A program made the translations under genes and the position numbers. Below the pieces are notes generated by a model. That model was not told the DNA's origin, searched no databases, and saw only the letters and a list, made by a program, of their open reading frames with translations. A stretch of DNA of 24,000 bases from Heliophilum fasciatum (lineage in GTDB: Bacteria > Bacillota > Desulfitobacteriia > Heliobacteriales > Heliobacteriaceae): the NCBI RefSeq assembly GCF_004341395.1, contig NZ_SLXT01000001.1, positions 111,748-135,747 on the forward strand. Reading direction: 5' to 3'. Below, piece after piece: positions 3,201 to 23,965 of this stretch. Positions within the stretch are counted from its first letter, which is position 1, and each line of letters starts with the position of its first letter.

Positions 3201-3524
3201 CTACCGGAAAAGCTGCTTGAACTCACCCTTGAAGATTTTGAAGTTGAGCACCATGTGGGCAATCACCGGTAATACGATGCCGAAGCCCAGCAAAATATGC
3301 AGTCCCTTGAGCAGCTTACCGGACATGCCTAAGAACGTCCACCCTTGTACTGCGGCCGGACCGTGGGGTGCCACTAGTAAACCTAATCCCGTTACCGTGA
3401 CCACCATGCCGAAAAGAGCCAGCATCATGGAAATAATCGCTTTGGTTTTGCCATTGGATACCGCCTTAGCTTGTGTTGCCCGCTCGTTGAAACCTGCGGT
3501 CATTTGATTATTCATCGTACTCAT
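3201..3524 (-). CDS. small His-containing membrane protein, paralog A (tentatively DUF4405-like)
   Basis: Start MSTMNNQ with a GGGAGG RBS, matching the start of paralog B. It has a TM helix plus the motif LHILLGFGIVLPVIAHMVLNFK. By eye it is about 75% identical to the 4332..4664 product. Confidence 0.7.
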   Translation of the reverse strand: MSTMNNQMTAGFNERATQAKAVSNGKTKAIISMMLALFGMVVTVTGLGLLVAPHGPAAVQGWTFLGMSGKLLKGLHILLGFGIVLPVIAHMVLNFKIFKGEFKQLFR

Positions 3525-3567
3525 CGTGATAGCCTCCCGAATCATTTTGATTTCTTTCGATGGCTTT

Positions 3568-4331: not shown

Positions 4332-4664
4332 TTACCGAAAAAGCTGTTTACACTCACCCATGAACATTTTGAAGTTGAGCACCATGTGCGCCATCACCGG
4401 CAACACCATCCCAAAGCCGAGCCAGATGTGTAAGTCTTTCATCACTCGGCCACTCATCCCCAGGAAAGTCCAGCCCTGAGCTGCTGCCGGTCCGTGCGGG
4501 GCCGCCATCAAACCCAAACCGGTTACGGTGACGATGATACCAAAAAGAGCCAGCATCATCGAAATAATCGCTTTGGTTTTCCCGGTCGATCCAGCTTTTG
4601 CACTTGTCGCTTTGGCTGCGAGACCGTTTAATTCTACCGTTATTTGATTGTTCATCGTACTCAT
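4332..4664 (-). CDS. small His-containing membrane protein, paralog B (tentatively DUF4405-like)
   Basis: Product MSTMNNQITVELNG...LHIWLGFGMVLPVMAHMVLNFK. A GGGAGG RBS precedes it. It is a paralog of 3201..3524. Confidence 0.75.
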   Translation of the reverse strand: MSTMNNQITVELNGLAAKATSAKAGSTGKTKAIISMMLALFGIIVTVTGLGLMAAPHGPAAAQGWTFLGMSGRVMKDLHIWLGFGMVLPVMAHMVLNFKMFMGECKQLFR

Positions 4665-8843: not shown

Positions 8844-8881
8844 ACTTATAAACCCTCCATCCCGCTACGCGATGGAGGGTT
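8844..8881 (-). terminator. terminator after crcB
   Basis: Perfect 11-bp stem AACCCTCCATC / GATGGAGGGTT with a 9-nt loop. It starts at the crcB stop codon and is followed by UUUAUAAGUUU, a moderate U tract. Confidence 0.6.
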
Positions 8882-9258
8882 TACCCCAGAAAATAACCTA
8901 GCCCACAAGCCAGCAATCCCATGACCGTTGTACCCAAGAGATAGGTAAAAAATTTATCCCATTTGCCCAACTCAATCAAACGTACCGCTTCATAGCCAAA
9001 GGTTGAAAAGGTCGTATAGGCACCTAAAAAGCCGATCTGCCATCCATAGCGTTCCACCAGGGCCGCCATCGAGCCATCATCGGTTACTGATTCCAGATGG
9101 GCCGCCGAAAGCCCAAGCAAAAAGGCCCCGGTAACATTGATGAACATGGTCATCCAGGGAATCTTCGCCCCCGGCCAGCGTTTGCCGCTCCACAGCGCCA
9201 GCCCGTAGCGCAGCCAGGCGCCACCAATACCGCCCAACCCAATCCACAACAATTCCAT
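8881..9258 (-). CDS. crcB: fluoride ion channel CrcB/Fluc, second subunit
   Basis: Product MELLWIGLGGIGGAWLRY...GFLGAYTTFSTF. The ATG at 9258 has an AGGAGG RBS that overlaps the upstream stop. Confidence 0.9.
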   Translation of the reverse strand: MELLWIGLGGIGGAWLRYGLALWSGKRWPGAKIPWMTMFINVTGAFLLGLSAAHLESVTDDGSMAALVERYGWQIGFLGAYTTFSTFGYEAVRLIELGKWDKFFTYLLGTTVMGLLACGLGYFLG

Positions 9259-9262
9259 CGGT

Positions 9263-9706
9263 TTATTCCTCCTGCGCCGGCTGACCTTCGGTTCGCGCAC
9301 CTTGCGATCGGTGGTGCCGTCGCTGGGCCCGCTCCAAGTTGCGCGCCCAGAACACACCCAGCGCCGACAAAACGGTGCCGCCAGCGATGCTGGCCATCAG
9401 GTAGATCCCTAAGGACCAAAAAGCCCGGCTGTTCAAGAGATAAACACATTCTAACGTAAAGGTTGAAAAAGTAGTAAAAGCCCCTAAAAAACCGGTGCCC
9501 AATCCCACCCGGATGGAGGGGCGTACAGAATAGTATTCAAGGGTAATTGTCAAAAAGAAAGCGAGCACCAAGCAGCCGCTCAAGTTAATAAGCAGCGTTC
9601 CCCAGGGAAAACCGCTCTGGGCCACCCAAGGAGCGCACCACTGCCCCATCTCATAGCGCAGGATCGCCCCAAGGAACCCTCCGATGCCGACGGCCAATAA
9701 CTGCAT
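9263..9706 (-). CDS. crcB: fluoride ion channel CrcB/Fluc, first subunit, with a charged C-terminal tail
   Basis: Product MQLLAVGIGGFLGAILRY...GFLGAFTTFSTF. A GAGGAG RBS precedes it. The extra tail is NLERAQRRHHRSQGARTEGQPAQEE. Confidence 0.9.
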   Translation of the reverse strand: MQLLAVGIGGFLGAILRYEMGQWCAPWVAQSGFPWGTLLINLSGCLVLAFFLTITLEYYSVRPSIRVGLGTGFLGAFTTFSTFTLECVYLLNSRAFWSLGIYLMASIAGGTVLSALGVFWARNLERAQRRHHRSQGARTEGQPAQEE

Positions 9707-11320: not shown

Positions 11321-12310
11321 TCATTCGCCGTCACTCGTACCCTTCCAGTGGGGAATCTTGTCGTCTTCGACACCGTCAAGGATGATCTTGATGATATCGG
11401 AGTCAATGGCCATGATTTCCGCACGCAGCGCTTCTTTGGCGGCATCAACTTTACGAAAAGGAAGTGTCGACTTCCACTCCATTTCACAGGCAACGACCGT
11501 TTTGTCACCTTCGGCCAGCAAATAAAGATTGCGAATGTCTGCAACATTGGCATTGGAGATGATCACTTTAGCCACTTTGTCCCGCAAGCTCTCCGGGGCT
11601 GCTACCCCGATGAGCGCCAAGGCGTTTTCCCAACCGATCTTGAGCGCGATCAGCACCAGAACCGCCCCGATGATCATCGTCACCACCGGGTCAATCCAGG
11701 CGATGTGGCTAAAGTGTCCGATCACGACGGCCACCAGTGCTAGCAATGCCCCACCGACAGCGATAAAATCCTCCCAGAACACCAGCTTTGTCGGGGGACT
11801 GGCCAGGTGTAAATTCGCCAGGGCCACAAAGGGGAGTTGCACCAGACCAACATGACCGGAACCGCTTTCTTCGGCGACCTCTCGCATCGCCCCCAGCCAA
11901 ACCTTGCCGTCAACGCCAATCGACAACAGCAGCGCAGCGATGGCGATCAGGAAATTTCCCTCCGCTTCCGGATGCATCAGCAGTTCATAGCCATGGAGTA
12001 CCGTTTTGGTGCTCATGAACACAATAAAAGCGGCCGCCAACAGGCATAACAAGTTGACCAAGCGCCCAAAACCATGGGGATACTTATCCGTTGGCTCATG
12101 TTCGGCAAAGATGCTGCCAAACCAAACCAGCCCCTGGTTGGCGGCATCGGCCACTGTGTGGATCGCTTCCGCGAACATCGCCCCGGAACCACTCATGACC
12201 GCAGCCCCGTATTTTACCATCGATAGCATCACGTTACCCAAAAAAGCGGACTTCGCCGACTGGTTACCCCGTTGGTACCACGGAGCATCCCCATGAATTA
12301 GCACATCCAT
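11321..12310 (-). CDS. cation diffusion facilitator (CDF) family metal transporter
   Basis: HxxxD motif in TM2 (AEAIHTVADAAN), PHGFGR, a TM5 Asp/His region, and a C-terminal dimerisation-type domain. The start is ATG 12310 or GTG 12304, next to GGAGGA. The track's TTG at 12340 has no RBS. Confidence 0.8.
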   Translation of the reverse strand: MDVLIHGDAPWYQRGNQSAKSAFLGNVMLSMVKYGAAVMSGSGAMFAEAIHTVADAANQGLVWFGSIFAEHEPTDKYPHGFGRLVNLLCLLAAAFIVFMSTKTVLHGYELLMHPEAEGNFLIAIAALLLSIGVDGKVWLGAMREVAEESGSGHVGLVQLPFVALANLHLASPPTKLVFWEDFIAVGGALLALVAVVIGHFSHIAWIDPVVTMIIGAVLVLIALKIGWENALALIGVAAPESLRDKVAKVIISNANVADIRNLYLLAEGDKTVVACEMEWKSTLPFRKVDAAKEALRAEIMAIDSDIIKIILDGVEDDKIPHWKGTSDGE

Positions 12311-12394
12311 TCCTCCAAACCCAGCCGTAGGTATCCACAATGGGTAAGGGCCATTTCTAGTGTATGCAACCCACGGGATAGATAAACATCACTA

Positions 12395-12436
12395 ATCGCA
12401 GGCCGACACCCGATGACCAGCGCATCGGCCTGCGAT
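12395..12436 (-). terminator. strong hairpin between cobW and the CDF gene (possible terminator or processing site)
   Basis: Perfect 12-bp stem ATCGCAGGCCGA / TCGGCCTGCGAT with an inner CGATG/CATCG stem. The downstream U tract is poor (UAGUGAUGUUUAUCU). Confidence 0.4.
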
Positions 12437-12456
12437 AAACTGTTGTTTCTGAATTT

Positions 12457-13407
12457 TTAGCAGATAGTGCCAAAAAGTTCATTAAGCGCTTTTTTATTTA
12501 CATTGTACCCGATGAAGCACAGTCGACTTTTCTGATGAGTTCCTGCTTCCTTGATCCGATAGAAACCCCGAACATAATCAAACTGTAGCCACCCGTCTTG
12601 CCCAGCTCGGATTAATCCTTTGCCACGCAGGATAGTGCCAAAGATATCGTTATGCGGCAAGACATTCAGGTTTGCTTTTATTTCTGCTGCACTGAAGGAG
12701 CGTTCCGTCTCTGCGCCCCAGATGTCAATGATTTTTTGGCCCGCTGCCTCATGATCGTCACAATGGCTGTGATCATGAAACGCTTTCGGAACTGCCCCAT
12801 CCAACTCTGGACTGAGTTCGGCGATGGCCAAAATCTCATCGCCAGTCAATACCGCCCAATCAGCCGTAATCAAATTGGCGTAACGATTTATTTCCGATAC
12901 AGAAGCAACAACGCTATCGATTACCGGATCATCGACTTCTTGTGTTTTACTCAACAGGATTGTTTTTGCATGGGCAATCTGATCGTGATAAAACTCGCCA
13001 AAATCTTCGATATACGCTTGATGATGAACGACATCCACAACCGTAATCAAGGCATTTAGGGTGAGGTCATTTTTCCCGGCAGCCTTTTGGCAGGCTTTGA
13101 TGACATCGGTTAACCTCGCCAAGCCTGTTGGTTCGATGATGATCCGCTCCGGCTTATAAGCAGTGACAATCTCATCAATTCCTCGGATAAAGTCACCGAC
13201 CAAGCTGCAGCAGATGCAACCGGAGTTGATCTCCAGGACTTCGATCTTTTGTTCGCGAAGAACATGGCCATCGATGCCAATTTCGCCAAACTCGTTTTCG
13301 ATGATGACCACCTTTTCACCGGTAAGGCTTTCTTTTAGCAATTTGGAAAGCAATGTGGTTTTGCCTGCTCCTAAGAAACCGGAAATAATATCAACTTTTA
13401 TGCTCAT
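12457..13407 (-). CDS. CobW/COG0523 family G3E GTPase metallochaperone
   Basis: P-loop GFLGAGKTTLL, CxCC motif SGCICCS, EPTGLA, and a His-rich stretch HDHSHCDDHE. The ATG at 13407 has AAGGTGA 5 nt upstream. Confidence 0.9.
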   Translation of the reverse strand: MSIKVDIISGFLGAGKTTLLSKLLKESLTGEKVVIIENEFGEIGIDGHVLREQKIEVLEINSGCICCSLVGDFIRGIDEIVTAYKPERIIIEPTGLARLTDVIKACQKAAGKNDLTLNALITVVDVVHHQAYIEDFGEFYHDQIAHAKTILLSKTQEVDDPVIDSVVASVSEINRYANLITADWAVLTGDEILAIAELSPELDGAVPKAFHDHSHCDDHEAAGQKIIDIWGAETERSFSAAEIKANLNVLPHNDIFGTILRGKGLIRAGQDGWLQFDYVRGFYRIKEAGTHQKSRLCFIGYNVNKKALNELFGTIC

Positions 13408-13465
13408 TGCACTCACCTTTTTTCATCATTGTTATTCGTTACGGTGATCATCAGCCAAATCCCAG

Positions 13466-13537
13466 TCAGTAATCGTACAACTGTCCGGACAATAATTCTT
13501 CCTTCATGATCTCGCAAGCAATGATTTTTATCGTCAC
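13466..13537 (-). CDS. 23-codon sORF upstream of cobW (possible DUF1638 N-terminal remnant or leader peptide)
   Basis: GGAAGGAGG lies 6 nt before the GTG at 13537. The product is MTIKIIACEIMKEELLSGQLYDY*. As I recall them, DUF1638 proteins of methyltransferase clusters start with a similar IIACE..EL pattern. Confidence 0.3.
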   Translation of the reverse strand: MTIKIIACEIMKEELLSGQLYDY

Positions 13538-13573
13538 CAATATCCTCCTTCCATTCAAGCCATCAAATCAGAA

Positions 13574-13609
13574 TTTAAAACAAAAAGGCCTGGCATGATC
13601 GCCAAGCCT
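13574..13609 (-). terminator. intrinsic terminator/attenuator at the end of the cobW leader
   Basis: On the minus strand: AGGCTTGGC-GATCAT-GCCAGGCCT (one C.A mismatch), followed by TTTTTGTTTTAAA. It lies between a good promoter and the RBS of the sORF/cobW. Confidence 0.7.
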
Positions 13610-13724
13610 CCAGTTCTCTGGTCAGCTATGAACACATGATTAGCATTCAGTTCAGTGGTTGGTTGGTTTCGCTTCCGGACATCGCCATCCGCATATAATT
13701 GACTATTCAGGTATGAATATATGT

Positions 13725-13754
13725 ATTTTATCATCTCATCACAAGGGTGGTCAA
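13725..13754 (-). promoter_or_regulatory. promoter of the cobW-CDF leader
   Basis: On the minus strand: TTGACC (13754..13749), 18 nt, TAAAAT (13730..13725). Confidence 0.65.
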
Positions 13755-13772
13755 ATTCTTTGTCCAAAGAAT
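13755..13772. promoter_or_regulatory. 8-2-8 perfect palindrome between divergent -35 boxes (candidate operator)
   Basis: ATTCTTTG-TC-CAAAGAAT. It abuts the minus-strand -35 and lies 10 nt from the plus-strand -35. Confidence 0.5.
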
Positions 13773-13781
13773 AAATTTATC

Positions 13782-13810
13782 TTGACACGATTCTCATCGC
13801 CGACTAACAT
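13782..13810 (+). promoter_or_regulatory. promoter of the plus-strand leader/sRNA upstream of the methyltransferase-corrinoid operon
   Basis: TTGACA (13782..13787), 17 nt, TAACAT (13805..13810). Confidence 0.65.
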
Positions 13811-13863
13811 AATAAATACGAATCGGTTTACTAGTATTTAAATACGGAGCCAACCGGAAAACC

Positions 13864-13921
13864 GGAGGCTGAGCGACACCTATCCACTGCGCGATAGGGT
13901 TACTCAGCCTCCTTTTTTTTT
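13864..13921 (+). terminator. strong intrinsic terminator/attenuator about 100 nt downstream of the plus-strand promoter
   Basis: GGAGGCTGAG / CTCAGCCTCC is a perfect 10-bp stem. An inner CCTATC/GATAGG stem sits within it, and T9 follows. A competing hairpin AGCC-aa-CCGG-aaaa-CCGG-a-GGCT (13848..13870) overlaps the left arm. Confidence 0.8.
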
Positions 13922-14061
13922 CAAAAGGGGTGATTGAGCAGCGTGATTGCCTAACCCAATAAAGGCAGGTATCGCCAGGCACTCTGGAAACAATCCCATA
14001 ATCCTGATCAAAACTTACTGAAGCAAACCGCACTCTGTCGAAAAAAGAGTAAAAAAGGAAG

Positions 14062-15135
14062 TTGAACACTTTGGTAAGACGCGACGAACTGACCTCGTTA
14101 GAACGAATCGCCACCGCACTCCAGTATAAAAAACCCGATCGCGTACCTGTTGCCCCCTTGGTTTGTGGTGCCTCCCACCGGGTCTTAGGAACAAGCTATG
14201 ACAAATGGTCCATGGACGCCGACTTGGCAACCAGAAGCCTCCTGGCCGCCCATGAGATCATCGGATTTGATTCCTTCTTGACCCTGGTCGATTTATCGGT
14301 CGAGGCCTACGACTTTGGACAGGAAGTTGTTTTTCCCAAGAACAGCACCGCCTACACCGAAACAAGCAATCCATTGATCAAAACGGTCGAGGACTATTAC
14401 AAACTTACGCCCATCAATCCCCGGGAAACCACACGGATGAGCATGGTTATCGACATGTGCGCCGGACTGTCGAAGGCTCGCGGCAAAGACACCGCCGTCA
14501 TCGGCTTCGTCTATGGCCCTTTAGGTGTGCTTTCCCAACTGCGCGGTCATGAGCGGATGTTTGTCGACTGCATTCGCCACCCTGAGGCGATTCTTCATGC
14601 CGTAGAAGTGCTTACTGAAGTGCTGATTGAATATGCGAAAGCCCAGATCGAAGCAGGTGCCCATGCGATATGTATTGATACCCTCTACGCGTCAGGGAGC
14701 ATTATGAGTAAGCGCATGTGGGAAAAATTCGAAGGTCCCTTTGCCAAGCGCATTGCCGATGCGATTCGCGCAGCCGGGGTAACCGTATTGCTCCATAACT
14801 GCGGCAATAAAATCTATTTTGACGTCCAGGAAAAATGGTGCAATCCCACAGCCATCTCCCATGCCTACCCCTCCGATGACTGCGCTGACTGGGATGAACA
14901 TGCCCGGAAATGGGGGAAGAAAATCGTCACCATCGGCTACTCCGTTCCATCCGATACGGGGATCATGATGAGCCCGGAAGAAATCATGGAAGATTGCCGC
15001 AAGCAGATCGAAACGTTTAAAGATTGCGACGGCGGGTTTATCTTGGCCACCGGCTGCGAATTCCCCCCAAACGGTAATTTATTAAGCGCCATCGCTATGG
15101 TAAACGCCTCCAAAACATACGGCCGTTACAGCTAA
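14062..15135 (+). CDS. URO-D family (MtaA/CmuA-like) corrinoid methyltransferase
   Basis: N-terminal KPDRVPVAP. Zn-ligand pattern LLHNCGN ... ATGCEFPPN. The ~350 aa size fits the family. The start is TTG at 14062 or TTG at 14071; AAGGAAG ends at 14061. Confidence 0.85.
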   Translation: MNTLVRRDELTSLERIATALQYKKPDRVPVAPLVCGASHRVLGTSYDKWSMDADLATRSLLAAHEIIGFDSFLTLVDLSVEAYDFGQEVVFPKNSTAYTETSNPLIKTVEDYYKLTPINPRETTRMSMVIDMCAGLSKARGKDTAVIGFVYGPLGVLSQLRGHERMFVDCIRHPEAILHAVEVLTEVLIEYAKAQIEAGAHAICIDTLYASGSIMSKRMWEKFEGPFAKRIADAIRAAGVTVLLHNCGNKIYFDVQEKWCNPTAISHAYPSDDCADWDEHARKWGKKIVTIGYSVPSDTGIMMSPEEIMEDCRKQIETFKDCDGGFILATGCEFPPNGNLLSAIAMVNASKTYGRYS

Positions 15136-15296
15136 ACCGTTCAGGTGATTTCTCTACCCTGAAAATCCCCTCGCTGTTGCTTTCATCCTTTGGGGTGCTA
15201 CATAGCAGCATGTTGTCTATTTTACCCGAAGTGCTCAGCGTGCGATCAAGCTTACCGGATTAATTGCAAAGTAATAAAAAGGAAGTGACTGTCCTA

Positions 15297-15944
15297 ATGT
15301 CAGAACTGAAAGATAAATTATTCCAAGAGCTTTCCGATGCCGTTGTGGATATGGATGAGGATAAGACGGTAGCGACCAGCCATCGCGTGATCGAGGAAGG
15401 CATCGACGCATATGAAGCGATTGAAAACGGCCTCGCCCATGGCATGGATCGAGTCGGCGAGCTTTTTGACCAAGAAGAATACTTCATTCCCGAAGTGTTG
15501 ATGAGTTCCGACGCCATGTATGCCGGTGTGGAAGTGCTGAAACCCCATCTGAAGGCGACCGAGCAGGGAGAAAAAACCAAAGTCGTCATCGGTGTTGTTG
15601 AAGGCGATACCCATGATATTGGCAAAAACCTCGTCAAAATTATGCTCGAGACCTCTGGTTTTGAAGTCATCGACTTGGGTCGGGATATTCCACCGCAGCA
15701 GTTTGTCGACAAAGCTACTGAAGTAGGTGCCCAGATCATCGGACTGGCGACCTTGATGACAACCACCATGGATGGCATGCACGAAGTCATTCGCATCTTG
15801 GAACAAAAAAATATTCGCAGCCAGTTCAAGGTGATGATCGGTGGCGGACCGATCTCACAGGCCTTTGCCGATAAAATCGGTGCTGACAGTTACGCCGTCA
15901 ATGCAGCCGACGCCGTGAGAAAAGCACGAAAACTGGTCAGCTAA
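15297..15944 (+). CDS. cobalamin-binding corrinoid protein (MtaC/MtbC-like)
   Basis: DxHxxG motif (EGDTHDIGKN), S/TxL (GLATLMTTT) and GG (MIGGGP), plus the N-terminal helical cap domain. The ATG at 15297 has AAGGAAGTGA 8 nt upstream. Confidence 0.9.
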   Translation: MSELKDKLFQELSDAVVDMDEDKTVATSHRVIEEGIDAYEAIENGLAHGMDRVGELFDQEEYFIPEVLMSSDAMYAGVEVLKPHLKATEQGEKTKVVIGVVEGDTHDIGKNLVKIMLETSGFEVIDLGRDIPPQQFVDKATEVGAQIIGLATLMTTTMDGMHEVIRILEQKNIRSQFKVMIGGGPISQAFADKIGADSYAVNAADAVRKARKLVS

Positions 15945-20285: not shown

Positions 20286-20939
20286 TTATTTCAACGGCTC
20301 CAGCAGCCGTTTATAGTAAAATCCCGTATTATACAGCGCTGCTGCCGGGTTATGGCCGAGCACGCGATCCTTAACGATCAATGTGGTCACTGGCGCCTCT
20401 GAATACTTGATAAACATGGAGTCATGACCTACACAAAGGCCGATGATCACGTTGAGATCGGTTTTTTCACGGTTTAGCAGGCGTGCTTGCATCACCGGAT
20501 TGCATAGGGACTCATGGCATCCCTGGTTGACTTTCATCGACTCGGGAATACCGATCTCCGTCTTATCGATCGCGCCGACCTTGCAAAGGACGCTGTAATT
20601 CTCCAGGCCGTTGATCGCTAGAATGCGCGCGAACACCTTCGCTTCTTGACTTAAACCGATGCACGTAGCCAGTCCAATCTTTTTGGCTCCGATGCGCTTG
20701 GCAAAAGCGACAATCTCCTCGACACGGGTCAGCCTGCCGTAATAGGTACCTTCCACCTCTGCAGCCGCTTTGGTGAGCCGGGCAATCGCCGGATCTTCCT
20801 GGTAAAGCGTCTTTAGTTCTTCACGTTCCGTTGCTGTGATCGCCGTCGTCAGGCAAAAAGCAGGGAACGTTCCTTCGGCCGGACGGGCACAATTCAAGAC
20901 GCCGCAATCGGAACAGCTCAATGTTTTTTTCTCACTCAT
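20286..20939 (-). CDS. DUF1847-type Cys-rich metal-binding protein
   Basis: CSDCGVLNC...PAFC, CHESLCNP, IIGLCVGHD and KDRVLGHNP match my recollection of DUF1847. The ATG is at 20939. Confidence 0.6.
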   Translation of the reverse strand: MSEKKTLSCSDCGVLNCARPAEGTFPAFCLTTAITATEREELKTLYQEDPAIARLTKAAAEVEGTYYGRLTRVEEIVAFAKRIGAKKIGLATCIGLSQEAKVFARILAINGLENYSVLCKVGAIDKTEIGIPESMKVNQGCHESLCNPVMQARLLNREKTDLNVIIGLCVGHDSMFIKYSEAPVTTLIVKDRVLGHNPAAALYNTGFYYKRLLEPLK

Positions 20940-20962
20940 TGGTGTACCTGTCACTCCTGCAC

Positions 20963-22657
20963 TTAAAAATTCAAACTCTCCACAAAGACCCGATCAAAAC
21001 CGGGGTCATGGGCCAGTTCCACGACATCCACCGTATCGACCCAAGCCTGAGCCGTCGTCCGCAACGGTTCATGAACCAGCAATGCCTGCCCGCCGGTCAG
21101 TGCCGTATTGCCGACAAACTCGATCTTCCCGGCAAAGTCCGCCGGCAACAGACCGATATCGATCAAACTCCGTGCGCGCAAATGGTAGCCGAAGGAGCCG
21201 GCAATCAGCACCTGATCCACATCCGCCAGTGTCAGCCCCTCCCGTTTTAACATCATTTCAATACCGGCACGAACTGCCCCCTTGGCCAGTTGAACTTGGC
21301 GCACATCTTTTTGCGTCAGATAGACATCGCCGTCCACATAAAAGACGGTTTTGCCTTCACGCGGCTGTAGCCGTTCGGCCAACGCCGGCAGCAACTGGGT
21401 TCGCCCTGGATCGGCCCAGCGGCCGGTGGGCTGAAGTACTCCGTGGCGGACAAGTTCCCCTACCAGATCGATCAAGCCGCTGCCACAGATGCCGACGGCA
21501 GGCGCTTGCCCGATCGTCTCGACCGATAGGGTTCCATCGTCTTCAACCGTAAACCGTTCGACGGCACCGGCTGCAGCGCGCATGCCGCAAGCGATGTTCA
21601 TGCCCTCAAAAGCAGGACCGGCTGCCGTCGATGTGGCCAACAACCGGCCATCGCGGGCCAAGATCATCTCGCCGTTCGTACCGATGTCGACAAACAGCGT
21701 TGTCCCGACCCGGGACGCCAGTTCCGCCGCAACGACACCGGCGGTGATATCAGCTCCTACATAGGCCGAGATGATCGGCGGGAGATAGATCCGCCCCCAC
21801 GGCGCGATTGCCAACCCATGGGCTTGCGCTTCGATCACTCTGCCGCCGCGTTCCAAGGGATCATAGGGATAACGCCCCAGCGAGGTGGGATCCTGCCCGG
21901 TGGCCAGGTGCAGCATACAGGTGTTGCCCGAAAAGACAACTTCATAGATCTGCCGGCGATCAACGCCGCTTTGCCGGCAGACCTGGCCGATTAAATCATG
22001 CAGTTCCCCGATCAATCCCGCATAGAGCCGCTCCAAGCCTTGGGGCTCGCCGGCCAGCTTAATGCGCGAGAGCACATCCTGGGCATGCAAACTCTGTGGA
22101 TTCAGCGCTGATGATTTCGCCGTTTCCTGACCGGTATGTAAGGAAACCAGGGAAACGACCAGCGTCGTTGTCCCGATATCCACAACGACTCCCCACAAAT
22201 CGGCAACGGTATTACCCGTTTCACTCCCCAGGCATTCCTCTTCCCCGGTTTGCCTGTTGAGGGCCAATACGTCCGTTCGTTGCAACAGCGGATCATAGCG
22301 CTTACGGATGGCCGCATCAGCGATCACATCCAGTGCTTTTCCCTGACCGATGATCTGCATCGCTGCGGGCTGTCGTGCTGATGACGGCAAGAAAACTTCA
22401 ATATCGTCGAGCACTTCAGTCACGCAGGCCAAAACCGTGCCCTTCGCTTGATCGTCAACGGTGACATCATGGTGAGCCGCTTGCCGAATGCGATGGTGCC
22501 AAGCCGGGTCCACCTGTACACGGCACTTGCCGCAGGTACCGGCACAATTGCAAGGGGATTCGATCAATACACCAGCTTGCCGGGCCGCCGCCAAGATCGT
22601 TGTTCCCGCGGCAACGTCAATCGATGTCCCACCGGGCAGAAAGGTTACGCGAGCCAT
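20963..22657 (-). CDS. reductive activator of corrinoid enzymes (RACE/RACo-type; 2Fe-2S ferredoxin plus ASKHA ATPase)
   Basis: N-terminal CNCAGTCGKCRV...LAC ferredoxin motif. ASKHA phosphate motifs VVDIGTTT and FVDIGTNGE. The ATG at 22657 has GAGGAGGTG 7 nt upstream and overlaps the upstream gene by 13 nt. Confidence 0.85.
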   Translation of the reverse strand: MARVTFLPGGTSIDVAAGTTILAAARQAGVLIESPCNCAGTCGKCRVQVDPAWHHRIRQAAHHDVTVDDQAKGTVLACVTEVLDDIEVFLPSSARQPAAMQIIGQGKALDVIADAAIRKRYDPLLQRTDVLALNRQTGEEECLGSETGNTVADLWGVVVDIGTTTLVVSLVSLHTGQETAKSSALNPQSLHAQDVLSRIKLAGEPQGLERLYAGLIGELHDLIGQVCRQSGVDRRQIYEVVFSGNTCMLHLATGQDPTSLGRYPYDPLERGGRVIEAQAHGLAIAPWGRIYLPPIISAYVGADITAGVVAAELASRVGTTLFVDIGTNGEMILARDGRLLATSTAAGPAFEGMNIACGMRAAAGAVERFTVEDDGTLSVETIGQAPAVGICGSGLIDLVGELVRHGVLQPTGRWADPGRTQLLPALAERLQPREGKTVFYVDGDVYLTQKDVRQVQLAKGAVRAGIEMMLKREGLTLADVDQVLIAGSFGYHLRARSLIDIGLLPADFAGKIEFVGNTALTGGQALLVHEPLRTTAQAWVDTVDVVELAHDPGFDRVFVESLNF

Positions 22658-23685
22658 CCTCGGGCACCTCCTCGCACCGTCTCGGTCAACGCCTGGATCT
22701 TCGCGATCGACGTGGATGTACTCAAGCCGCAAGCCGGGGCAATGATATCGACCTGATCCCTGACCAGTTGTTCCGCCTGCCTTGCCACTTGATCAGCCGA
22801 ACCAAACTCCAGCAAATAGGTGCTCAAATTACCCATCGTCGTCAACGCCGGAAAATCTTCCTTGAGCCGCCTGAGACTGACCATCGCATCGGTGCTGATC
22901 GCATCCGAGCGAATCGCCGGGATCAAGTGGCGGACCGCTTTCATATCGCCGCAGATATGTACAATCACCGGTGCGCCGACGGCGTGAATGCCATCGATCA
23001 CCTGGTTCAAATAAGGCACCGCAAACTCTTCAAAACACTTGGGGCCTAAAATCTCCCCCGTTGCCGTCGGATCGCCGATGGAGATCACCGTCGCGCCGTT
23101 GTCGATCAACTCTTGGGCAAATTCCACAAGATGGCGGCTCACATAATCGAGTACGCGATGCACTTGTGCTTTGTTCTTGCGCAGTTCCTTAAAGAAGTTC
23201 ATCGGATCGATGATCGAAGCAGCCGTACTGATCGGTCCCGTCAAGTTACCGACAATGGGCACATCGGGACGGGCACGGTGCAAATGATAAGCGGCCTGGA
23301 TCACTGTGGCCGTGCGTCCCGTACCCATGCGGTACGCTCCATCGCGAAACTGAACCTGATCGGCCGAAGCAAACAATTCCCGGGCAATTTTCGGTTCACA
23401 AGCCAGCGTACCGTAATCAACATCAGCCCCCAACACTTCCGCTTCCACGGTCATGCAAAAGGGAATCCCCAGATTTTCAAACCCCGTATAGTCATGAATA
23501 TCCAGGGCGATTTGGGCCATTTTTTGCGCGTCATGATGTCCTTCGGGCAAGGTGTGACCGGTTTGATTCATCACGTCCACAATGGCTGCGTTCATCATCC
23601 CGCCAGGGCAAATCACGGGCGGGCGATCGGTCGTTTTTTTCTGTAATACCCGTTGTAATCGTTCTTGAGGACTGAGTGAACTCAT
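22645..23685 (-). CDS. URO-D family (MtaA/MtbA-like) corrinoid methyltransferase
   Basis: N-terminal TDRPPVICPGGMM. Zn-ligand pattern IVHICGD ... IIAPACGLS. Confidence 0.85.
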   Translation of the reverse strand: MSSLSPQERLQRVLQKKTTDRPPVICPGGMMNAAIVDVMNQTGHTLPEGHHDAQKMAQIALDIHDYTGFENLGIPFCMTVEAEVLGADVDYGTLACEPKIARELFASADQVQFRDGAYRMGTGRTATVIQAAYHLHRARPDVPIVGNLTGPISTAASIIDPMNFFKELRKNKAQVHRVLDYVSRHLVEFAQELIDNGATVISIGDPTATGEILGPKCFEEFAVPYLNQVIDGIHAVGAPVIVHICGDMKAVRHLIPAIRSDAISTDAMVSLRRLKEDFPALTTMGNLSTYLLEFGSADQVARQAEQLVRDQVDIIAPACGLSTSTSIAKIQALTETVRGGARGWLA

Positions 23686-23856
23686 TTAAGGCCACCGCTT
23701 TCTATTTTAGATTGGATTTGACTTGGATCACCGAGGGAGCGAACTGTCGCCATCATCGCCTCGATATTGGTCAGGGGCGTTTCCGTCGGCAAGCTGCAAC
23801 CCGATGCAACGATATAACCACGAGGACTATCGTAGTGACTTCGGAATTCAAGACAT

Positions 23857-23906
23857 CAAAAAAAGCGAAGCGATCTGCCTTACTCATGTAAAGCCGATCG
23901 CTTCGC
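23857..23906 (-). terminator. terminator of the upstream (off-window) minus-strand gene
   Basis: GCGAAGCGATC / GATCGCTTCGC is a perfect 11-bp stem, followed on the minus strand by T7. Confidence 0.85.
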
Positions 23907-23965
23907 CTTCAGTTTTTCTGATCAGCGAAATATTCTTTACTCATTGATGACTTTCAGCGTAGTAT

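Follow-up and report, generated by a model that had tools for sequence, protein, structure and literature searches.

A conserved hairpin overlapping intrinsic terminators heads sulfur and methionine genes in anaerobic bacteria: a putative ON attenuator first seen in Heliophilum fasciatum

Two operons diverge from positions 13574-13921 of a 24,000-nucleotide (nt) stretch of Heliophilum fasciatum DNA (contig NZ_SLXT01000001.1, positions 111,748 to 135,747; hereafter, the window). One carries genes for a methyltransferase and a corrinoid protein, the other genes for CobW and a CDF transporter, and each is preceded by a leader RNA that ends in an intrinsic terminator. Why do these two leaders share a short motif, and what does it control? 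An initial annotation of the locus, made from the letters of the DNA, had read the motif as part of one attenuation device used by both leaders, a riboswitch-like RNA or else the binding site of an antiterminator, which together with a shared DNA operator would co-regulate metal chaperone and export functions with corrinoid methyl transfer. We examined the motif in the window, in related genomes, and in metagenomes. Both leaders do carry one such device, but neither the operator nor the metal theme withstood comparison with other loci.

A conserved hairpin directly before three terminators

Each of three sites in the window is an attenuator: a conserved hairpin of ∼27 nt stands directly before an intrinsic terminator. 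Two of the sites are the divergent leaders, where the shared motif was present as described, at 13854-13870 (+) and 13621-13605 (-). The third (copy 3), which the initial annotation did not include, lies between the end of a gene running off the window and an operon of MT_B, RACo, and DUF1847 genes. A covariance-model scan of the whole window with filters off returned exactly these three copies (38.6, 38.1, and 32.5 bits), and the next-best match in the 24 kb, which is not a copy of the motif, scored 9.3 bits. With a model built from homologues, the two divergent copies reached E values of ∼1e-7 to 1e-9 in the window and are thus far beyond chance.

The consensus, of ∼27 nt, reads (R)GCU-GA-CCRG-loop-CYGG-A-GGC(Y) and forms two helices around a GA/A internal loop, P1 of 3-4 base pairs (bp) and P2 of 4 bp, with a variable apical loop of 4-8 nt that usually has A first. 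P2 is the mini-hairpin that had been noticed at the outset, and P1 is formed by the 3-4 bases 5′ of the GA bulge paired with GGCY. In the plus leader, P1 is the AGCC...GGCU helix that had been proposed to compete with the terminator, and it proved to be the conserved antiterminator helix. For the minus leader, a CCAACCAACC tract had been put forward as the competitor; this tract is not conserved in relatives, and the actual competitor is AGCU at 13627-13624, immediately 5′ of the GA bulge.

Comparison of many copies supported both helices. In a set of 34 copies that was collected independently of any fixed-P2 pattern (an earlier set held 15), 96% of the cells were paired and six of the eight pairs had changed on both sides. 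None of 500 shuffles of this set attained the observed values, and slid registers paired only 22-53%. The change from G:C to A:U between the two mini-hairpins, pointed out initially as compensatory, turned out to be one of many such changes across homologues. We also scanned metagenomes with a pattern that fixed P2, GGC, and the GCC-UUUU end of the terminator but put no constraint on the three bases 5′ of GA. At least 120 contigs matched, with at least 62 unique sites in which P2 was properly formed and the terminator stem had 6 bp or more; the three free bases were complementary to GGC in 57 of the 62 listed sites compared with 6% expected. Upstream of position -4, no conservation was found across 80 instances, and the element is therefore only ∼27 nt long. 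A larger aptamer was ruled out for the same reason. A kink-turn reading of the GA/A loop was rejected on inspection as well: it requires a P2 register at odds with the way the first P2 pair covaries (C-G to U-A), and the three bases 5′ of GA are paired.

The covariation, which supports a selected structure, bears on one alternative, that the leaders hold non-regulatory terminators resembling each other by chance or through a repeat element, or else that they work by leader-peptide attenuation. A short open reading frame (ORF) in the minus leader, MRMAMSGSETNQPLN, does have three Met codons, but ∼80 instances held no consistent Met- or Cys-rich upstream ORF and no fixed spacing of one to the motif. 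Moreover, the orientation of the motif to the sulfur genes described below is constant across phyla, and the terminator sequences beside it are wholly different. We regard this alternative in either form as scarcely credible.

The same architecture was found in other genomes. The closest relatives of the window methyltransferase, each 88% identical to it, are the proteins of Heliobacterium chlorum and H. mobile. Both species keep the divergent arrangement and both motif-plus-terminator blocks, the terminator of the plus leader included, but not the promoter region between them. Beyond Heliobacterium, a relaxed pattern followed by the covariance model identified more copies near homologous clusters in Sporomusa, two Clostridia metagenome-assembled genomes (MAGs), and three Geobacter/Desulfuromonadales MAGs. 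The initial annotation had staked its proposal on recurrence of the motif in orthologous regions, and there it does recur; the lineages that carry it are Firmicutes (Heliobacterium, Sporomusa, Clostridia) and Desulfuromonadales/Geobacter. Some loci contain tandem complete units (L007, L084, L097, L125, L128, and L211) and some divergent motif pairs (L001, L093, L152, and L211). The element has several of the features by which riboswitches are generally recognized: covarying structure, an expression platform, presence in several lineages, and functionally coherent genes.

No catalogued RNA family accounted for it. Rfam 15 gave no family at gathering score anywhere in the window, and over 13400-14100 with E up to 10 it returned snoRNA and sRNA noise only, far below gathering scores. 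At motif sites, Rfam had no match in 13 genome loci, 20 metagenome loci (E up to 5), and 12 further loci, and no Rfam 15 family fitted among ∼100 copies examined in context. The initial impression that no known riboswitch class is present thus stands, with Rfam 15 empty at the motif for the cobalamin, NiCo/czcD, SAM-I to SAM-VI, SAM/SAH, SAH, THF-I/II, HMP-PP/thiS, PyrR-site, and T-box models alike.

The remaining parts of the divergent region were also as first described: both promoters, the palindrome between them, both terminators, and the shared motif all lie where the initial annotation had placed them, as does the gap of 140 nt between the end of the plus terminator at 13921 and the methyltransferase start at 14062. 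In a consensus scan of 13000-14500, these two promoters were the best promoter-like sites; judged from their positions, transcription would start near 13817 in the plus leader and near 13718 in the minus leader. The palindrome had been taken as an operator shared by both operons. It occurs once in the window even with three mismatches permitted, and it is not kept in H. chlorum or H. mobile (L001 and L002), the latter having an imperfect, different palindrome over the minus -35 box. Three other divergent motif pairs have no inverted repeat in common. A conserved DNA operator was therefore ruled out, and the palindrome may be a lineage-specific transcription-factor site.

Genes that follow the element

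Copy 1 heads the core of a type 1 mlp cluster (Table 1). Such clusters encode URO-D-family zinc methyltransferases with a His-Cys-Cys site, a corrinoid protein, and RamA/RACo, and many of them have links to MarHDK-like genes and to sulfur metabolism (Kountz & Balskus, PMC10418091); that account mentions no riboswitches, terminators, or leaders. Pfam identified URO-D twice in the window together with B12-binding with B12-binding_2, RACo domains, and DUF1847, a content that places the cluster in type 1. In the methyltransferase encoded downstream of copy 1, the His-Cys-Cys site (H245, C247, and C332) is invariant in 21 homologues.

Copies 2 and 3 each precede what is left of a gene. The short ORF at 13466-13537 (-), translated VTIKIIACEIMKEELLSGQLYDY up to its stop codon, had been listed initially as a small gene before cobW; it is the N-terminal remnant of a DUF1638 gene, and H. 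chlorum has a full-length DUF1638 gene (MKTKIIVCDIMREEIL...) at the matching position. DUF1638 is genetically tied to B12-dependent methionine synthesis (PMC5764234). At copy 3, the frame 23686-23860 (-), which lies between the terminator and the start of MT_B and encodes ...GYIVASGCSLPTETPLTNIEAMMATVRSLG, resembles the C-terminus of a URO-D methyltransferase (blastx E ∼0.001) and looks like a gene remnant. The DUF1638 and URO-D remnants suggest recent rearrangement of the cluster.

Table 1. Positions of the attenuators, promoters, and genes in the window (first rows) and of elements in other loci that are named in the text. P1 and P1′ (P2 and P2′) are the 5′ and 3′ strands of each helix; R1 and R2 are two covariance models.
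Feature	Position	Strand	Details
Motif copy 1, plus leader	13848..13870	+	P1 AGCC 13848-51; bulge AA 13852-53; P2 CCGG 13854-57; loop AAAA 13858-61; P2′ CCGG 13862-65; A 13866; P1′ GGCU 13867-70; 38.2 bits (R1), 32.5 bits (R2)
Terminator, plus leader	13864..13921	+	GGAGGCUGAG...CUCAGCCUCC then U9; z = -7.8
Motif copy 2, minus leader	13605..13627	-	P1 AGCU 13627-24; bulge GA 13623-22; P2 CCAG 13621-18; loop AGAA 13617-14; P2′ CUGG 13613-10; A 13609; P1′ GGCU 13608-05; 41.8 bits (R1), 38.1 bits (R2)
Terminator, minus leader	13574..13611	-	GGAGGCUUGGCGAUCAUGCCAGGCCUUU then U-rich tail; terminator scan (13611..13584 + U-tail)
Motif copy 3	23904..23927	-	CGCU-GA-UCAG-AAAAA-CUGA-A-GGCG; model match 23935..23897; 43 bits (R1), 38.6 bits (R2)
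Terminator, copy 3	23858..23907	-	GGCGAAGCGAUCGGC...GCAGAUCGCUUCGC then U7; from the sequence
Minus promoter	13725..13754	-	TTGACC-18-TAAAAT; 10/12 consensus positions; TG extension before -10
Plus promoter	13782..13810	+	TTGACA-17-TAACAT; 10/12 consensus positions
Palindrome	13755..13772		ATTCTTTG-TC-CAAAGAAT; perfect 8-2-8; repeat search; abuts minus -35 box
Copy 1 genes (type 1 mlp core)	14062..15944	+	URO-D-family Zn methyltransferase 14062-15135; corrinoid protein 15264-15944; Pfam
Copy 2 genes	11321..13537	-	DUF1638 N-terminal remnant 13537-13466; CobW 13416-12457; CDF transporter 12340-11321; Pfam
Copy 3 genes	20286..23860	-	URO-D remnant 23860-23686; MT_B 23685-22645; RACo 22732-20963; DUF1847 20954-20286; Pfam
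SAM-I riboswitch, L209	3039-3138		before Cys_Met_Meta_PP-yezD operon
Motif copies, L209	7693-7731; 8929-8966
T-box/SAM-I, psychrophilic Clostridium L015	3977-4208; 635-735; 2188-2294
T-box/SAM-I, psychrophilic Clostridium L014	3329-3437

The genes behind or around the motif in ∼90 loci are those of sulfur scavenging and of methionine and S-adenosylmethionine (SAM) metabolism. They include mlp methyltransferases, corrinoid proteins, and NifH-, NifDK-, and NifB-like genes resembling those of methylthio-alkane reductase (Mar); SsuA/B/C-like transporters and an SsuD-like monooxygenase; and sulfite reductase fused to TusA, CysK/CBS-like and O-acetylhomoserine-sulfhydrylase-like enzymes, rhodanese, and MetK. 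In Geobacter sp. OR-1, three copies punctuate a single array, Rrf2-cysK-yezD-(motif)-nifH-like-methyltransferase-(motif)-metK-MFS-(motif). A T-box precedes the orthologous operon of Clostridium frigoriphilum, and SAM-I riboswitches precede Cys/Met genes nearby. Heliobacteria possess Mar-type genes whose presumed role is sulfur supply (PMC9147875), and the Mar homologues of R. palustris are induced by sulfur limitation (bioRxiv 10.64898/2026.08.20.746119). The regulon is one of sulfur scavenging plus methionine/SAM, not of metal homeostasis or cobalamin.

This gene content bears directly on the theme of the initial annotation, that a cobalt-, zinc-, or B12-responsive device co-regulates CobW and CDF with corrinoid methyl transfer. 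Within the window, the arrangement favors that theme, with the minus leader preceding CobW and CDF and the other two copies preceding corrinoid-dependent enzymes. Elsewhere, however, most copies precede ssu, sulfite reductase, cysK-like, and metK genes. CobW is a regular, standard member of the corrinoid S-methyltransferase (mlp) operon in Clostridium, and the CDF gene follows a motif copy only in this window, with no match to it among the downstream ORFs of other loci. Moreover, no cobalamin or NiCo riboswitch model fits. The co-regulation of metal chaperone and export with corrinoid methyl transfer was given up in view of the sulfur regulon of the ∼90 loci, and we consider a metal- or B12-responsive device highly improbable.

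The literature that we searched, a search that left most subscription journals outside, contained no riboswitch or attenuator tied to mlp, Mar, or DUF2292 (the family of YezD). Papers on mlp and Mar and recent surveys of noncoding RNA do not mention such an element, and reviews and preprints from 2026 on Mar regulation mention neither riboswitches nor attenuation. On this sequence evidence, the element is a new class within the terminator/antiterminator attenuators, catalogued nowhere that we found, although a prior description is possible.

Some further observations were made on neighboring genes and related loci. Psychrophilic Clostridium species have the orthologous CP-MT_A-CobW-DUF1638-MT_B-RACo operon after a T-box and neighbors of the Cys_Met_Meta_PP family after SAM-I riboswitches (Table 1). 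At 8881-9706 (-), the window contains two adjoining, overlapping ORFs of 158 and 147 amino acids (aa) that look by eye like a CrcB/FluC fluoride-channel pair; Rfam detected no fluoride riboswitch in the window. Two paralogous ORFs for small membrane proteins (114 and 110 aa), with MSTMNNQ... near the N-terminus, lie at 3201-3545 (-) and 4332-4664 (-), and an acetyltransferase-like ORF sits between them.

The probable switch and its candidate effectors

GGCY, the 3′ strand of P1, serves two structures in nearly all copies: it also begins the terminator 5′ arm, where it pairs beside the U-tract. The rest of the terminator, stem and loop, is wholly different from copy to copy. In the plus leader, the terminator 5′ arm includes both P2′ and P1′ of copy 1. 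Because the 3′ strand of P1 is common to both structures, hairpin and terminator are mutually exclusive, and because that strand is the base of the terminator, the hairpin is an antiterminator. Folded alone, the hairpins of copies 1 and 2 were predicted at -11.5 and -9.4 kcal/mol compared with -32 and -17.9 kcal/mol for the respective terminators, and P1 usually includes G-U pairs; a 111-nt stretch across copy 3 folded at -40.7 kcal/mol (z = -5.2). A weak hairpin facing a strong terminator implies a switch that is OFF by default.

From this architecture we infer an ON switch. By default, RNA polymerase would stop in the leader, the terminator being the stronger structure. A candidate factor would bind the conserved GA/A internal loop and stabilize the hairpin, which would then block nucleation of the terminator and allow read-through into the operon. 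The signal would be sulfur limitation, as the controlled genes are needed when cysteine, methionine, or inorganic sulfur is scarce. We consider it probable that the element is an ON attenuator of a sulfur regulon. As to the factor, a small metabolite is our favored candidate, in which case the element would represent a new and very compact riboswitch class with a design like that of the hydroxymethylpyrimidine pyrophosphate (HMP-PP) switch; a protein partner is only slightly less likely. The travel of the element with its genes across phyla, the tandem units, the S-box/T-box niche, and the HMP-PP precedent all point to a metabolite, to which we nevertheless give somewhat less than an even chance.

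Several points weigh against this picture. With ∼10 conserved nt and a variable loop, the element matches the smallest known aptamers in size or falls short of them, and it would suit a protein site, such as the ribonucleic antiterminator (RAT), equally well. Nearly all substitutions in the helices are transitions, a pattern that sequence-specific recognition by a protein could explain. The ON logic is drawn from thermodynamic prediction and architecture, and the link to sulfur limitation from gene content and analogy. Finally, a few copies have no terminator and stand beside a ribosome-binding site (L201 10629-10666 and L202 1743-1780). These may be translational variants of the switch. In both, a Shine-Dalgarno sequence and a start codon were seen within ∼30 nt.

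The gene content also recalls the S-box, and the opposite logic has to be weighed: a new SAM (or methionine) riboswitch class that is OFF when bound, binding favoring the terminator. Consistent with such a class, metK lies directly downstream in six to seven loci, and the orthologous or neighboring genes of Clostridium carry SAM-I riboswitches. However, all conserved nucleotides lie in the antiterminator hairpin, and nothing conserved upstream could serve as an aptamer or an anti-antiterminator. An ON state without ligand is implausible, given how far the terminator exceeds the hairpin in predicted stability. Contig L209 has a SAM-I riboswitch as well as two copies of the motif on different operons (Table 1), suggesting a different signal, and no SAM-family model fitted even at E <5. 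We judge a SAM OFF switch very unlikely. In L209, one of the motif copies was seen before a PALP gene and the other before a gene for a B12-binding-URO-D fusion.

A protein could also throw the switch assumed here, and one family stood out. YezD (DUF2292), a protein of 50-65 aa, might bind the hairpin as an antiterminator in the manner of HutP, GlcT, and PyrR, with the regulator gene just 5′ of its target. Of 111 motif instances, 21 have on their own strand a DUF2292 gene, assigned by Pfam PF10055 with E of 1e-15 to 1e-18, that ends 7-350 nt (mostly 7-80 nt) before the motif; in only 2 does the gene lie just downstream. Conversely, all seven distinct loci that were chosen by YezD homology alone carry the motif. 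The usual orders are Rrf2-cysK-yezD-(motif) and cysK-yezD-(motif), in which Rrf2 is CymR-like. When we clustered the 744 ORFs that lie no farther than 4 kb from the motif, taken from 92 loci, YezD, tied with CysK, was the most frequent family, and no other candidate RNA-binding family appeared. The RNA is, moreover, as simple as a RAT element, and the preponderance of transitions in its helices fits a protein site.

Long forms of YezD, whose genes directly follow cysK, have a C-terminal G-x-G-I (GSGI, GGGI, GAGI, or GDGI; L111, L174, L176, L197, L199, L201, and L205; proteins P0131, P0133, P0173, and P0176). This tail resembles the GDGI tail of CysE and the GYGI tail of CdiA. The CysE tail plugs the active site of CysK, from which O-acetylserine displaces it. 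By analogy, this suggests an extension of the YezD model in which the G-x-G-I tail docks on CysK, and CysK with O-acetylserine would decide whether YezD is free to bind RNA.

Other observations favor YezD less. Neither the window nor the Heliobacterium loci, each of 11 kb with three copies of the motif, contain yezD, although the gene may lie elsewhere in those genomes. In L094, L135, and L211, yezD is itself downstream of the motif, and in L205, L206, and L209 it is not adjacent; membership in the regulon would explain these positions equally well, and YezD may simply be a core regulon member. Short forms of YezD, which are found beside Rrf2 or ABC transporter genes, have no tail. The GGA of the motif and a similar pattern of β-strands had prompted a comparison with CsrA, which hhalign did not support (probability 0.1), and a CsrA-like YezD was rejected. 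Sequence searches of the Protein Data Bank (PDB) with YezD matched no solved structure. An AlphaFold model of YezD has one helix and one β-hairpin and is moderately confident (predicted local distance difference test [pLDDT] 70); at that pLDDT, a Foldseek search of the PDB with the model returned nothing below E = 1. DUF2292 is essentially absent from the searchable literature. We therefore treat YezD as a possible effector, and a doubtful one.

Taken together, the metabolite and the protein lead to one broader proposal, which we hold with moderate confidence: the element would be the RNA arm of a sulfur-status sensor that has gone unrecognized, either a new riboswitch class, one of the smallest known, turned ON by a metabolite that builds up when sulfur is limiting, for example an O-acetylserine-type signal, or a YezD/DUF2292 antiterminator with a CysK-docking tail, through which O-acetylserine and sulfide would govern read-through. 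In both versions, this one device would coordinate mlp corrinoid S-methyltransferases, Mar-like enzymes, sulfonate uptake, sulfite reduction, and metK in anaerobes of at least two phyla. If the proposal is true, the element is a widespread, uncatalogued class of cis-regulatory RNA with many more copies than we counted. It would be the first regulatory handle on type 1 mlp sulfur/selenium-methyltransferase clusters and on the Mar-type nitrogenase-like enzymes of anaerobes, which act on volatile organosulfur compounds and liberate methane, ethylene, and methanethiol. The motif regulon argues that mlp clusters, where the motif is present, serve sulfur acquisition, which bears on the sulfur-versus-selenium question of Kountz and Balskus. 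DUF2292/YezD would gain a testable function, possibly as a new partner of the CysK sensor. An ON switch of ∼27 nt with its terminator may also be of use as a genetic part.

Comparison with known attenuators

RAT elements with their co-antiterminator (CAT) proteins, and likewise the attenuation systems of HutP and PyrR, use a small imperfect hairpin that lies over a terminator arm and is stabilized by a small protein. The RAT hairpin of the LicT, SacY, BglG, and GlcT systems, of ∼29 nt, overlaps the terminator, and the architecture of our element, a hairpin with an internal loop that overlaps the terminator 5′ arm, is analogous to it. The regulator gene immediately precedes the RNA target in glcT-ptsG, hutP, and pyrR, much as yezD frequently precedes the motif. 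The sequence of the motif, which we take to be unrelated to the RAT consensus, matched nothing in Rfam, and the PyrR-site model in particular had no match to the motif region. YezD has no detectable relation to CAT and PTS-regulation-domain (PRD) proteins, HutP, or PyrR, and its binding of RNA is putative. Among the frequent families of the 744 ORFs from 92 loci, there were no CAT/PRD, HutP, PyrR, ANTAR, or phosphotransferase-system (PTS) sugar genes, and Pfam scans found none either. An ANTAR leader has a tandem pair of hairpins, each with a hexaloop that carries A at position 1 and G at position 4, and the second of the pair lies over the terminator. The element described here has instead a single hairpin with a variable loop of 4-8 nt and nothing conserved upstream.

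The nearest riboswitch in terms of logic is HMP-PP (thiS), likewise a compact ON switch, whose short P1 draws on 5′ nucleotides and vies with the base of a strong terminator beside the U-tract. There, as predicted here, the terminator is the thermodynamic ground state, so that the decision is kinetic and made during transcription (Atilho et al. 2019, PMC6478431). In HMP-PP, the terminator tip doubles as P2 of the aptamer, with a proposed pseudoknot, whereas P2 of our element forms its own hairpin on the 5′ side of the terminator. Our element differs further in its GA/A internal-loop core, its unconserved terminator loop, its sulfur rather than thiamin genes, and the lack of an Rfam match. The conserved terminator loop, the embedded pseudoknot aptamer, and the thiS genes that define HMP-PP members are all missing from it, and only the logic is common to the two.

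SAM-I (S-box) riboswitches and T-boxes occupy the same niche as the element. They also work by competition between terminator and antiterminator, and they head the orthologous mlp operon and its neighbors in Clostridium. However, they are 100-220 nt long with complex folds, and SAM-I is an OFF switch, whereas the element is ∼27 nt long and ON by its architecture, and neither model fits it. The Rfam T-box model matches L015 but no motif site, and the 5′ bulge of the element is only GA, compared with the UGGN bulge of a T-box antiterminator.

In the window and in many homologous loci, the controlled genes encode His-Cys-Cys methyltransferases, a corrinoid protein, RamA/RACo, DUF1638, and NifH- and NifDK-like proteins. 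These are the genes of the mlp clusters and of the MarBHDK methylthio-alkane reductase; the published accounts of both cover the proteins, and the attenuator described here concerns the RNA that precedes their genes.

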